64,000 bases of DNA from positions 4,588-68,587 of the forward strand of contig CAVQJR010000011.1 of the NCBI GenBank assembly GCA_963712895.1, written 5' to 3'. This document shows, piece after piece, positions 56,704-62,505 of the stretch (position 1 is the first letter of the stretch; each line of letters opens with the position of its first letter). The translations under genes were made by a program, and so were the position numbers. A model generated the notes under the pieces. It did not search any database. It was not told where the DNA came from and worked only from the letters and a program-made list of their open reading frames with translations. The DNA comes from an uncultured delta proteobacterium (GTDB lineage Bacteria; Desulfobacterota; Syntrophobacteria; Syntrophobacterales; Syntrophobacteraceae).

Positions 56704-56790
56704 AGAACTGTACCGTGGCCATAATTTACGAATTCCTCTTGTGCTTCGCACCCGGATTGACGAGCTATCAGTGCAACCACGCGGGAACAA
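56704..56790. repeat. Left ~85-bp inverted repeat bounding the LexA-MTase cassette
   Basis: Its reverse complement aligns with 61283-61367. The perfect 51-bp core is GGTTGCACTGATAGCTCGTCAATCCGGGTGCGAAGCACAAGAGGAATTCGT. Confidence 0.9.
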
Positions 56791-56802
56791 GGGATATCCC
56801 CA

Positions 56803-57499
56803 CTACCGAATGAGCAGCCATAGGTGAGATATGCTTATGGGACATGCTGAGCCTCGGTATTCAGGCCAGAGAAAATCCCTTCTGTGGCTTGAACGATAGA
56901 TCGCATGTTCATCAATCGCGGAATGCTCAATTGGTTTCAGAATGGCTTTATTTTTGACATCATCAAGGATGAAAGCAAGCTGTGCGAAAGAGTACCCTTC
57001 CTTTGCGTATCCGCCATAAGCGCGTCCTGCATGGCCCATGCATAATCTCCATTGACGAAGCGGACTAAGCCCTTATTGCAGTAGCAGGACGAGATGGTGT
57101 GTTTAGGATCGATCGGTTTCACTCCACAAAGAGACCATCTTGATCGCTGAGAATCGGCAAGTTTCCTCGTCTTAATTTGAAGAAGAAGTCCGGCATCTTA
57201 TCGGGGTGCTTTTTGTCAAAATTTGTGATCTTTTGATCCCTGCTCACTCTGCCGAACAACTCATTGTTAAATCCATTGATTTCGCCGCTCTTTCGCAAAC
57301 GGTTTTCGATTATTTCGACCAGAATTTGTGTAACGGTATCTTCGTCAGCCAATTGCATATTAAAGCCGGTGGGAGGGGTTTCTTCGAGCAACTGCCAAGC
57401 CCTCCTGATAACCTTGGTGAGGAGCAGGATAGTACGCTCTGGAATTGGCGGGTGCGGCAAGGTGAATTCCACACCACGAGTGAAAAAGCCGATGGGCAT
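56803..57499 (-). pseudogene. Frameshifted small ORF with a possible PD-(D/E)xK nuclease motif
   Basis: Three successive minus-strand ORF pieces lie in different frames (57119..57499, 56937..57122, 56803..57039). The ATG overlaps the MTase stop (TGATG, 57497-57501). Repairing a 1-nt shift at ~57119 gives ...KMPDFFFKL-x-DGLFVE-x-KPID. Confidence 0.6.
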
Positions 57500-60400: not shown

Positions 60401-60543
60401 TCAGCGACCGCATCAACTTTAAAACTCGCGTTTCCCGAGAGCTTCAGCAGATCGAGGTATTCCAAATGCCTGGGGGTTGGCTCGCTATCGAGCCGAACGA
60501 CGTCATGACATCCATAGGCTTTGGCTTCATCAATGACATTCAT
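57499..60543 (-). CDS. Large N6-adenine DNA methyltransferase (gamma-class, Eco57I/type IIG-like core) with unassigned N- and C-terminal regions
   Basis: Motif I ILDPSCGAGVFL, FDVNESALRLAALSL, and motif IV DLVIGNPPWG in the order I then IV. ~330 aa N-terminal and ~450 aa C-terminal to the core are unrecognised. The start overlaps the repressor stop (ATGA, 60540-60543). Confidence 0.85.
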   Translation of the reverse strand: MNVIDEAKAYGCHDVVRLDSEPTPRHLEYLDLLKLSGNASFKVDAVAEFQARPLLYIVSGGQIQNSDPEKRLDLQCLLANRGEIAYLGVLNPGELVVYPINLDRSALAGSAGKTIKRETPEAPLFFQSIINGVFSLEGQPKEADFVFKRINDLMTHSSEDLIGTYGLNPLDVLSFLGRALFFRFLWDRKIVRQNELNTVCPNANSSGDCFRDVENSVATCRWLDETFNGDLLALTGDYKELFNQANLKTDGRVFLDLRAILEGWKHVGASFQTTIDWGNLDFAHIPIGVLSQVYENFSKIWDPQHRKQTSAYYTPRNIAQYLVDDAFDGLSNKKDARILDPSCGAGVFLVLAFRKLVAARWEHDGKRPDTKTIQSILYTQLCGFDVNESALRLAALSLYITAVELNGTQRPPKSLRFPKPLQGAALHNFRRPEEQEAKGFVLGSLSSDLPEDFDGCFDLVIGNPPWGRLKGDDEESKKQVREHNAAFTGLTRQALKNRGLGGLAESYRNPDNNPDLPFLWKATQWVKPGGIIAMVLPGPIFLKQTVSGVQAFEAILNGMEITGILNGSNLSDTAVWPGMSQPIMLLFARNRVPAASHHFHFLTPHLERSLNDVGRLRLAYQSAQPVAAIGVIDDPWLFKTLAVGTSLDVQVVRKIDEPKWPTVESYWKDMRLYSGRGYDRSPKLRQYDAAFMLRLPDFAPPPNGLFSVDVFLLRKFMQPTAHMPRCIALYTPPLLIVPESPGGRKYSPKSWIVHESAVFSKSYYGFSAAGSNKANTIIALLHLITHCDLFRYHVLMTSSRMAAERRTFLKENIEKFPFPTPELLSPDQRLNAEALSIQLETEAVKPWKAINDFIFDLYDIDEYERQVVKDTLEIASPFREARDRANSPPKKDERSAFYAELHQLLIPSFDLTNETLAVREVQVEKQGFLSPWHFFSVSSSAGSPVPTQAAQNHLISLITEEANRTGCSRVIVHGERYLLVGIIGQYRYWTLSRARLCALDILRHHLDAFPIRRS

Positions 60544-61181
60544 GTAATGCCCCGATAATTTCTGATTCGAATTATCCCCTGATAGCGTCCGAAGATCTGA
60601 ATGAGTTCAATCTCGTCCTTGGCGTATTGACGATCGCGAAATGCTGGGTTTTCGGCTTTTAGTATAAGCAGATCTGGTGACAAGTATACCTTTTTCAATG
60701 TGGCCTCCTGCTCTATAAGAACGGCAGCGATCTCTCCATTTTCAACTCTATCCTGTCTCCGGATTACGGCGAGGTCGCCATTTCTGATTCCTGCCCCTGT
60801 CATGTTGTCGCCTGCAATACGGAGAGCAAAAAGCTCACCTCCACCAAAGAGGGAAGGCGGAATTGGAAGATTTTCTTCAATGTTCTGCTCCGCCCACATT
60901 GGAACTCCTCCTGCAATAACTCCAAGCAGAGGGATAGTCCTCTCCTGCTGGGGAGCAACCATTGTATCTGAAATCACGAACTGGATTCCGCGCGCTTTTC
61001 CGAAATTCAGGCGAATGAAACCTTTTTTTTCGATAAGTCCGAGGTGGCCACGCACAGTGTTGAGACTCCGATAGCCCAAGCCATCGCGGATTTCCGCCTG
61101 AGTCGGTGGAGAGCCATGCTTTTTCTGCCACGCGACAATATAGCGGTAAATGCTAGCTTGTTTCTCGGTCAGGTCCTTCAC
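60540..61181 (-). CDS. lexA: LexA-family (S24 peptidase) repressor paralogue
   Basis: Winged-HTH N-terminus (PPTQAEIRDGLGYRSLNTVRGHLGLIEKKG), an Ala-Gly site in LLGVIAGGVP, and an S24 body with Lys in ATLKKV. The catalytic Ser position reads Asn (AGDNM). GTG start. Confidence 0.85.
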   Translation of the reverse strand: MKDLTEKQASIYRYIVAWQKKHGSPPTQAEIRDGLGYRSLNTVRGHLGLIEKKGFIRLNFGKARGIQFVISDTMVAPQQERTIPLLGVIAGGVPMWAEQNIEENLPIPPSLFGGGELFALRIAGDNMTGAGIRNGDLAVIRRQDRVENGEIAAVLIEQEATLKKVYLSPDLLILKAENPAFRDRQYAKDEIELIQIFGRYQGIIRIRNYRGIT

Positions 61182-61200: not shown

Positions 61201-61235
61201 TACTGTATAAATTAACACTGGTATTATAAACAGTA
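61201..61235. promoter_or_regulatory. Two abutting SOS-box-like operators overlapping TATAAT-like hexamers
   Basis: TA-CTGT-ATAAATTA-ACAC (61203-61218) and CTGG-TATTATAA-ACAG-TA (61218-61233). The outer halves are perfect TACTGT/ACAGTA. They lie 20-55 nt upstream of the lexA-like GTG. TTTATAATAC occurs twice on the gene strand. Confidence 0.55.
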
Positions 61236-61282
61236 TTATAAAGCAGAAAGCAAGGGAATTTTTGAAGCTGTGCTTTAGACAT

Positions 61283-61367
61283 TGATTCCCGCGGGTTGCA
61301 CTGATAGCTCGTCAATCCGGGTGCGAAGCACAAGAGGAATTCGTCAAATAATGGCCACTACAGTTCT
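61283..61367. repeat. Right ~85-bp inverted repeat bounding the LexA-MTase cassette
   Basis: Partner of 56704-56790 (51-bp perfect core, a few indels and mismatches outside it). Confidence 0.9.
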
Positions 61368-61428
61368 ATGTCCCCAGAACTCCTCCCGCATGATGGCAAG
61401 TCATAGAATAAGCCTTAAAAATATCGTT

Positions 61429-61452
61429 GCCAAAGGCAACTTTGGCTTTTTT
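61429..61452 (+). terminator. Candidate rho-independent terminator facing away from the cassette
   Basis: GCCAAAG-GCAA-CTTTGGC followed by TTTTTT. No convincing plus-strand CDS lies upstream. Confidence 0.5.
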
Positions 61453-61560: not shown

Positions 61561-62505
61561 TTAAGGCTCCGTTCGGCCGGGAAGGCAGAGGAATTCCTTT
61601 CCGCCGAAGGCCACAAATGCCAGCCGGGCCTCATCGCGCAGCCTTCTTGATTCGATTTCCAGCTCCCCCTCGGCAATTCCAAGCGATGCGGCCAACTCGG
61701 GGATCGTGCACGGCCGCCTTTCTATGGTTTCAAGAATGCGGGCCGCGATATCGGACTTCCCGGCTTCCGCGCCGCGCCCGCCGAAAACGCCGATGATTTC
61801 GGTTCGTTGCGTCTTGAAATAAGAGGCGGCGCGCTTCATCTCCTCTTCCGAAAGGCCCCTGGTGCCGGCACACGCGGGCGGCCTCACCACCGTGTTGAGT
61901 TCTATCCTGTCGGCCCCCGTTTTTTCCGCCGCCAGCGCCAGCGCGGACAATTGCTCGGGGCTGTCGTTTACCCCGGCAACGAGCATGATTTCGATATGAA
62001 ACAGGCCCCGGTACTCACGCCCGAACGCGCGAAGCCCCTCCAATATTTCCGGAAGACCGAGCATTGGATGAGGCCTGTTGATTCGGGCGAATACTTCAGG
62101 GGTGGCCGCATCCAGGGAGGGCACCACCCTGTCGGCTTTGAGAAGATCTTTTCTGACACCCGCGTCGTGCAGAAGCGAGCCGTTGGTGAGCACCACCAGG
62201 GGGATTGCGGGGTACCTGCCCTTGATCTCGCCGATCAGTTCCCCCAGCATGGCATAAAGCGTGGGCTCGCCCGCGCTGGAAAAAGTGAGGGCGTCGGCCC
62301 CCTTCGGGAACCGGCGGAAGAATTGGTCAAGCTCCTTGAGGACTTCGGCCGGGTCGGCGAAATTTTGCCTCTTCAGGCTCAAGTGGGTCGTCGGCCCCGA
62401 TTCGCAGTATATGCAGTCGAAGGAACATGTCTTCGGGGGAATTACGTCTATTCCCAGCGAACGCCCTAACCGGCGCGAAGGCACGGGACCGAATATCAAA
62501 CCCAT
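61561..62505 (-). CDS. Radical SAM protein with C-terminal winged-helix-like extension
   Basis: GPVPSRRLGRSLGI N-terminus, CSFDCIYC (CxxxCxxC) cluster and GEPTL. Confidence 0.85.
   Translation of the reverse strand: MGLIFGPVPSRRLGRSLGIDVIPPKTCSFDCIYCESGPTTHLSLKRQNFADPAEVLKELDQFFRRFPKGADALTFSSAGEPTLYAMLGELIGEIKGRYPAIPLVVLTNGSLLHDAGVRKDLLKADRVVPSLDAATPEVFARINRPHPMLGLPEILEGLRAFGREYRGLFHIEIMLVAGVNDSPEQLSALALAAEKTGADRIELNTVVRPPACAGTRGLSEEEMKRAASYFKTQRTEIIGVFGGRGAEAGKSDIAARILETIERRPCTIPELAASLGIAEGELEIESRRLRDEARLAFVAFGGKEFLCLPGRTEP

Follow-up and report, generated by a model that had tools for sequence, protein, structure and literature searches.

A probable two-box LexA operator ahead of a mobile three-gene cassette in an uncultured Syntrophobacteraceae bacterium

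LexA of Escherichia coli recognizes the consensus TACTG(TA)5CAGTA, and the two boxes at its own gene are separate and do not overlap. The controller (C) proteins of restriction-modification (R-M) systems are small helix-turn-helix regulators (~80–100 aa) that have no protease domain and are not known to sense DNA damage. In colicin operators, double boxes bind two LexA dimers and there is essentially no basal expression (PMC2994835). LexA proteins of delta-proteobacteria recognize divergent motifs (PMC3108266; PMC8565304), duplications of lexA often go together with motif divergence (PMC8565304), and two lexA genes are reported for Leptospira (PMC3789691). Here we analyze a 64,000-nt stretch of DNA (hereafter the window, numbered from its first base) from an uncultured delta proteobacterium of the family Syntrophobacteraceae (contig CAVQJR010000011.1, positions 4,588 to 68,587), and in it a 35-bp element at 61201–61235 that lies upstream of a lexA-like gene, the first gene of a three-gene cassette. 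Judging from sequence comparisons, this element is probably the cognate operator of the LexA-family repressor that the cassette itself encodes, which would make the cassette autoregulated.

Two overlapping boxes upstream of the cassette

Read directly on the + strand, 61201–61235 is TACTGTATAAATTAACACTGGTATTATAAACAGTA, which contains the boxes CTGTATAAATTAACAC (61203–61218) and CTGGTATTATAAACAG (61218–61233) with base 61218 common to both. On the gene (−) strand the 35-bp site becomes TA-CTGTTTATAATACCAG-TGTTAATTTATACAG-TA, and the first base of the downstream box (box B) is the last base of the promoter-proximal one (box A). A sequence-only reading of the window had described two CTGT-N8-ACAG-like boxes sharing this base, in each of which one half-site is perfect and the other is not, and both points are confirmed: either box matches seven of the eight half-site bases, its spacer is A+T at all eight positions, and the box centers are 15 bp apart. 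Two further points of that reading stand in part. The 35-bp palindrome it named is present but imperfect, with self-complementarity at 26 of 35 positions (13 of 17 pairs, reached by 0.015% of composition-matched shuffles) and perfect pairing at the outer 6 nt only. As for the two TATAAT hexamers said to overlap the site on the gene strand, one (61228–61223) does lie inside box A, whereas the other (61240–61235) touches the interval by a single base. Box B ends 22 nt, and the 35-bp site (at 61201) 19 nt, from the GTG start codon at 61181. A cruciform or an RNA element was considered and rejected, as the fold of the element is weak, with no significant hairpin (z = −1.06), and the operator region gave no match in Rfam.

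Single boxes occur in the window at chance frequency (12 one-mismatch sites observed, 10.97 expected), and in the 4.97-Mb genome perfect CTGT-N8-ACAG sites are not enriched, numbering just 36, most of which have a G+C-rich spacer, so that a single motif alone would mean little. The concern that the palindrome might likewise recur by chance throughout this genome is not borne out for the composite 31-bp pattern, which at ≤1 mismatch has a single occurrence (0.34 expected). When the genome was scanned with a 20-mer position weight matrix built from 25 orthologous loci, the window being left out, box B came first and box A second (scores in Table 1), followed by a third site at 17.3 bits; no other site outside the cassette exceeded that value. 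With 36 perfect sites and nothing above 17.3 bits beyond the cassette, a CTGT-type SOS regulon across the genome was rejected.

Orthologues of the repressor gene (58–87% identity) were found at 28 loci in a species-representative genome collection, their hosts being Syntrophobacter (Syntrophobacterales), Desulfosarcina (Desulfobacterales), Desulfatiglandales, Desulfobulbaceae, Syntrophorhabdaceae, Smithella, Geobacter and Malonomonas. The same double box precedes 26 of the 28 orthologous cassettes, 16–31 nt before the start codon. Aligned, the upstream regions read cTTGCttt-N~9-T-ACTGT-N8-ACAGTGT-N8-ACAGT-A, with high information content at the half-sites ACTGT, ACAGTGT and ACAGT and in the box A spacer, and low information content in the flanks; the 20-mer consensus of the family, TACTGTTAATATTAACAGTA, is close to that of E. 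coli LexA. Box A departs from CTGT-N8-ACAG by at most one base in 24 of 29 loci and is perfect in eleven orthologues, and box B departs from GTGT-N8-ACAG by at most one base in 22 of 29. At the shared base, 25 loci have G, which gives a perfect box A and a GTGT in box B, and the other four have C, which gives ACAC in box A and a perfect CTGT in box B; this pattern fits the prediction of a one-base overlap between two boxes. From these alignments, the conserved double box is the phylogenetic footprint of a putative two-dimer operator that has travelled with its gene through many host lineages.

It could be argued that what is conserved here is a strong A+T-rich promoter, bound by no repressor, and that its likeness to an SOS box is coincidental. 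The TATAAT in the box A spacer, the conserved −35-like TTGC ahead of it and the chance frequency of one-mismatch single boxes would all be compatible with this. The best conserved columns, however, are not the hexamers but the G/C-containing CTGT/ACAG half-sites at their exact 8-bp spacing, and to these are added dyad symmetry and a shared base that co-varies as two boxes predict. Moreover, the next gene encodes a LexA whose DNA-binding domain is nearest to the solved LexA proteins of E. coli and Pseudomonas aeruginosa, and E. coli LexA binds CTGT-N8-ACAG. We therefore consider a promoter without a repressor to be highly improbable.

A second alternative, which we think unlikely, concedes a repressor but allows it one functional box: a single dimer would suffice, and the other box would be a by-product of the A+T-rich promoter and leader. 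Box B is indeed less conserved than box A (its scores go down to 7–16 bits, with at least two mismatches in 7 of 29 loci), one orthologous locus (L020) has a single box, and, with one base in common, the two boxes cannot both be free of mismatches. Against this, few columns of the alignment are better conserved than the distal ACAGT half of box B, which lies at one fixed distance from box A in 26 of 29 loci. Box B of the window is the top-scoring site of the genome, and colicin operators work with the same layout of two boxes.

The cassette repressor and the host LexA proteins

The predicted product of the lexA-like gene matches PF01726 over residues 1–65 (E = 2.7e-15) and PF00717 (E = 2.3e-25) in Pfam, and it scores 156 bits with TIGR00498, the NCBIfam lexA equivalog, against a cut-off of 110.95; by domain content and by this cut-off, it is a bona fide LexA as far as its sequence tells. 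PADLOC returned no match for the regulator. Its closest solved relatives are the LexA proteins of P. aeruginosa and E. coli; identity to the latter is about 35–45%, and over residues 1–69 the numbering of the two is co-linear. The E. coli residues S39, N41 and H46 and the R64-G65-I66 wing are kept, as is A42 in the family consensus; these positions are DNA contacts in the LexA-DNA structure.

The search for relatives gave more than 1,000 homologues and, among the matches listed, those named by source were all from Deltaproteobacteria/Desulfobacterota, one being labelled only Pseudomonadota. The cleavage motif of the family consensus, IAAG-VP, occurs in 106 of the 120 closest homologues, the catalytic Ser is retained in 119 of these 120, and Lys163 is kept. 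Because the Ala-Gly site, Ser126 and Lys163 are all kept in the family, its typical members should be cleavable, and their cassettes inducible by DNA damage.

Two further lexA genes are present in the genome, at C15:11807–12430 (followed by imuB-like and dnaE2-like open reading frames, ORFs) and at C13:36432–37037; the two share 71% identity. Promoters of the C15 type in ~15 relatives read TTGAC-TTTCACC-N5-TTCACC-TAaaTT, in which the promoter spacer holds TTCACC-N5-TTCACC, a direct repeat of 11-bp period, and the same repeat (TTCACCTAATATTCACCT) stands ahead of the operon that contains the C13 lexA. We regard TTCACC-N5-TTCACC as a candidate host LexA box for Syntrophobacterales, unrelated to CTGT-N8-ACAG. 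It differs from the published motifs of Geobacter, Myxococcus and Bdellovibrio, and its unlikeness to CTGT-N8-ACAG fits the literature on divergent motifs in delta-proteobacteria. Similar TTCACC repeats were seen at C7:825712 and C17:64897. Elsewhere, in two uncultured bacteria (loci L033 and L037, one of them WOR-3), TTGACT-ACTATACA-N3-TGTATAGTATA lies ahead of lexA, a distinct palindromic LexA-box candidate that overlaps the promoter.

These host genes bear on a third alternative, namely that chromosomal LexA proteins of the host bind the boxes, so that the cassette belongs to the host SOS regulon while the cassette LexA has another target or none. Host LexA does control colicin operators in trans (PMC2994835), and two additional lexA genes are there to supply such a protein. 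Even so, we give this explanation very little credence. The upstream regions of the host lexA genes, with which the sequence-only reading had meant the cassette to be compared, turned out to be different: both host operons, together with their orthologues in 20+ relatives, carry TTGAC-TTTCACC-N5-TTCACC and no CTGT-N8-ACAG. There is no other CTGT-type site in the genome, hence no such regulon. The box also co-occurs with the cassette lexA in hosts of differing LexA type, e.g., Geobacter with GGTT-N10-AACC (PMC8565304), and the wing of host LexA (KRALDL) differs from the ARGI shared by the cassette protein and the E. coli type.

Autoregulation by the cassette repressor, as the sequence-only reading had put forward, is thus well, if indirectly, supported by the footprint in 26 of 28 cassettes, the lack of any other good site in the genome and the different motif of the host, and on this comparative evidence we hold it to be very probable. 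Several observations weigh against it. In the cassette family, E44 of E. coli LexA is replaced by R and E45 by S or G; as both are base contacts in E. coli LexA, the same half-site would need to be read differently. The box A spacer also serves as a −10-like element (TATTAT/TATAAT) in the orthologues, and part of its conservation is owed to that element alone. Three orthologous loci are irregular, one with a 9-nt box B spacer (L017), one with a single box (L020) and one with degenerate boxes (L027, from Malonomonas rubra DSM 5091, which has all three cassette genes). In the window itself, box A carries one mismatch, and TTGCTT lies 19 nt upstream of the box A TATAAT as opposed to 16–17 nt in most orthologues. 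The longer spacing results from a 6-nt insertion that the window has in common with its closest relative, locus L001, and it is the reason why a promoter scan made no call at the TTGC/TATAAT pair.

In the mechanism that we propose for autoregulation, two repressor dimers would bind, perhaps cooperatively, to the pair of 16-bp boxes of CTGT-N8-ACAG type, which have one base in common, with box A covering the −10 hexamer (61228–61223) and box B the predicted transcription start and early leader. The bound dimers would block both binding and initiation by RNA polymerase at a single promoter, and since this promoter would drive a translationally coupled three-gene operon, the outcome would be negative autoregulation of the whole unit. 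A typical repressor of the family would be expected to cleave itself on filaments of RecA and single-stranded DNA (ssDNA), making the entire cassette inducible by DNA damage. The overlap of the boxes, for its part, may provide very tight repression of a product dangerous to its producer, as in colicin operators.

On the + strand, a promoter-like sequence (TTAACA-16-TATTAT, 10/12, 61212–61239) overlaps both boxes and points away from the lexA-like gene. The region might accordingly be read as a bidirectional one, in which the same site also governs this divergent promoter and a short outward transcript, and the terminator-like hairpin that lies beyond (Table 1) would suit such a transcript. We doubt that this is so: the + strand −10 needs the 6-nt insertion found only in the window and in L001, most orthologues do not have that geometry, the region has no Rfam match, and a terminator of the upstream radical-SAM gene would account for the hairpin just as well. 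Rather than marking a separate small RNA, the hairpin probably ends that gene and shields the cassette promoter from read-through.

Table 1. Positions of the operator boxes, the cassette genes and associated features
Feature	Position	Strand	Remarks
Box A, promoter-proximal, CTGTTTATAATACCAG, CTGT-N8-CCAG	61218..61233	−	1 mismatch to CTGT-N8-ACAG; position-specific scoring matrix (PSSM) 25.2 bits
Box B, downstream, GTGTTAATTTATACAG, GTGT-N8-ACAG	61203..61218	−	PSSM 27.1 bits
−35-like TTGCTT, conserved	61248..61253	−	'cTTGCttt' in upstream alignments; putative promoter role
lexA-like gene, 213 aa, LexA winged helix-turn-helix + S24 peptidase domains	60540..61181	−	PF01726, PF00717, TIGR00498
N6-adenine DNA methyltransferase-like gene, 1014 aa	57499..60543	−	Pfam N6_Mtase, Eco57I, MmeI_Mtase; second gene in 28 orthologous loci
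Third-gene remnant (231 aa in orthologues)	56803..57499	−	frame broken by two single-base deletions vs L001
Right arm of bounding inverted repeat, 57 nt	61294..61350		partner 56722–56778, 96% complementary
Terminator-like hairpin, readable on both strands	61426..61446		between upstream radical-SAM gene (61561–62505, −) and cassette; putative function
Host TTCACC repeats (genome G000)	C15:11744–11761; C13:35617–35634		compared loci L085–L110

Cargo, decay and mobility of the cassette

Three tightly packed genes are found in every sufficiently long orthologous locus, encoding the lexA-like protein (213 aa), a methyltransferase-like protein (~1015 aa) and a protein of ~231 aa. In the window, the start of the methyltransferase gene overlaps the stop codon of the lexA-like gene (ATGA), and its product is partially matched by the PADLOC models for type IIG restriction endonuclease-methyltransferase and PglX. 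The third protein of the orthologues has invariant E65, P103-D104 and E126-C-K128 residues, a PD-(D/E)XK-like signature set in a helix-strand-strand-strand context. It has no match in Pfam, NCBIfam, PADLOC, PHROGs or a PDB profile search, and its AlphaFold model is poor (predicted local distance difference test, pLDDT, 49.9), so that the nuclease assignment, drawn from this signature, stays putative.

The copy of the cassette in the window looks decayed. Codon 126 of the repressor is AAC (60804–60806), giving Asn126 in GDNMTG where L001 has AGC (Ser), so that the window copy, although Lys163 is present, lacks the Ser/Lys catalytic dyad of the family. The cleavage site reads IAGG-VP in the window, in L001 and in three of the 120 closest homologues, with Gly as the aligned P1 residue and an A-G dipeptide one position earlier. 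The two deletions that break the third gene relative to L001 lie near 57119 and 57013, outside homopolymer runs, and the first falls within the conserved E-C-K motif. Asn126 and the broken third gene together suggest that the operator is likely occupied permanently, in a cassette that is silent and decaying; in other words, a predicted non-inducible repressor would be sitting on its operator while the cassette is likely being disarmed. At three other loci (L008, L009 and L018), the methyltransferase of the cassette is divided over at least two ORFs (e.g., 696+201 aa, 611+395 aa), and cassette decay is therefore not peculiar to the window genome.

Its distribution and surroundings in the genomes compared mark the cassette as accessory and mobile. 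Of 96 genomes of the order, 5 have the methyltransferase, as do 3 of 38 further genomes from the same genus. The GC content is about 48% (46–51%) inside the cassette vs 57–60% outside, an IS630-family element adjoins it, and among orthologous loci a flanking ORF is held in common by just 3 of 378 pairs. Inverted repeats bracket the three-gene unit, operator included. As a general trait of the cassette, however, such long repeats were rejected: among 6 orthologous loci tested, comparable ones occur only in L001, the closest relative, and conservation of the operator and the three genes does not depend on them.

The sequence-only reading had taken the operator type as support for a foreign origin. 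An accessory and mobile cassette is indeed what the sparse distribution (5/96), low GC, unrelated flanks and repeats point to; the part that does not stand is a gammaproteobacterial donor, which is disfavored by the LexA tree, the range of the clade and the regulators of related plasmid cassettes. The tree is small (42 sequences) and carries long-branch warnings, among others for the grouping of E. coli with the host. In it, the cassette LexA proteins form a clade (support 99/99) whose sister is another Desulfobacterota LexA-like group near integron-integrase-like genes, not the LexA of E. coli or P. aeruginosa. A gammaproteobacterial origin of the repressor thus has no support in the tree, and the clade is confined to Desulfobacterota in the searched collections. 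The operator type sets the repressor apart from that of the host without identifying a gammaproteobacterial source. Comparison of the N-terminal domain alone gives E. coli and P. aeruginosa LexA slightly higher scores than host LexA, a similarity that is suggestive without being decisive and would fit either retention or convergence of specificity. Members of the sister clade (~40% identity, wing GKKRSW; loci L030, L031, L032, L034 and L039) lie directly downstream of a gene with a tyrosine-recombinase/integron-integrase-like C-terminus.

Full-length homologues of the methyltransferase (32–34% identity) are carried on plasmids of Pseudomonas, Burkholderia, Agrobacterium and Allorhizobium. Two of these were inspected, from Pseudomonas frederiksbergensis (L115, 2543–6749) and Burkholderia glumae (L116, 2472–6661). 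In both, a third gene of similar size follows the methyltransferase gene, and that of Pseudomonas is homologous to the third protein of the cassette (hhalign 99.9%); the first gene, however, encodes an unrelated, non-LexA protein of 151–163 aa. The regulator module appears, from these arrangements, to be exchangeable between cassettes. Upstream of the P. frederiksbergensis unit lies a different palindrome, AACTG-N14-CAGTT, over a TATAAT.

Tentatively, these strands can be drawn together as follows. A clade of LexA paralogues in Desulfobacterota may have kept, or independently evolved, CTGT-N8-ACAG specificity of the beta/gammaproteobacterial type, and a colicin-style double operator would use it to silence a mobile methyltransferase/nuclease pair fully until RecA-ssDNA forms, e.g., upon DNA damage or phage replication, while related plasmid cassettes would have swapped the regulator. 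We put this forward as one possible history, and a less than even one. If it is true, the cassette would be a DNA-damage-triggered restriction or suicide module (defence/addiction) with a built-in SOS sensor. The joining of a LexA sensor to a methyltransferase/nuclease-like cassette, and not to repair genes, likewise suggests DNA-damage-gated restriction or addiction.

Comparison with known systems

Among controllers of modification enzymes, the C proteins of R-M systems resemble the cassette in that a repressor gene heads an operon of methyltransferase/nuclease type, with a dyad operator (a probable one in the cassette) over the promoter that precedes it, and is coupled to the enzymes in transcription or translation. 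Unlike in C-protein systems, a LexA of 213 aa that includes an S24 domain serves as the regulator here; the cassette pairs a clear methyltransferase domain with a putative endonuclease, and any restriction activity is likewise putative. A literature search for a LexA-controlled R-M cassette returned nothing relevant, which is no proof of absence.

The second lexA genes of Leptospira, Xanthomonadaceae and Geobacter are comparable in being extra copies beside that of the host, with a motif that differs from the host's. The cassette gene departs from these other secondary paralogues in being tied to a recurrent three-gene unit in Desulfobacterota, and in that its apparent motif is of the beta/gammaproteobacterial type and not a novel one. 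The E. coli-type box is, accordingly, not confined to Beta- and Gammaproteobacteria, as it is seen here in Desulfobacterota, whose known LexA motifs differ strongly. The same comparison yielded, as a by-product, the candidate Syntrophobacterales host LexA box TTCACC-N5-TTCACC.

With E. coli lexA, the cassette has in common two LexA boxes on the gene's own promoter (a putative one in the cassette), the same half-sites with an 8-bp spacer, the domain architecture and a co-linear N-terminal domain. It differs in that E. coli LexA governs a regulon of >40 genes, whereas the cassette LexA has no other site in its genome, and in that the two proteins form no common clade in the tree.

The closest likeness in layout is to the colicin E1 operator of ColE1, CTGTATATAAAACCAGTGGTTATATGTACAG, which we read directly from the plasmid record (L081, 5063–5093). 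This cea operator has the same 31-bp layout as the window site, with two 16-bp boxes sharing one G, and matches it at 25 of 31 positions; in both, the spacers are A+T-rich, the boxes lie on the promoter (a putative one in the cassette) and the regulated product is potentially harmful to its producer. The colicin solution of overlapping double boxes for silencing a dangerous product would thus be repeated in the cassette. There are also clear differences. Colicin operators depend on a LexA that acts in trans from the chromosome of an enterobacterial host, whereas in the cassette the first gene of the operon itself encodes the repressor, which is why the cassette, unlike colicin operators, would be autoregulated. 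The cargo of the former is a bacteriocin on a Col plasmid; that of the latter is a methyltransferase and a nuclease-like protein, in Desulfobacterota hosts with another apparent LexA motif.

The cassette family offers a defined candidate pair of operator and repressor, a 35-bp site and a 213-aa protein, in 28 natural variants, and the copy in the window illustrates how the disarming of such a cassette may occur in nature, through a predicted non-cleavable repressor and a broken nuclease-like gene. Set against the systems described before, the double-box design is already known; what is new is the repressor encoded in cis, the Desulfobacterota clade of paralogues and the cargo of a methyltransferase with a nuclease-like protein.

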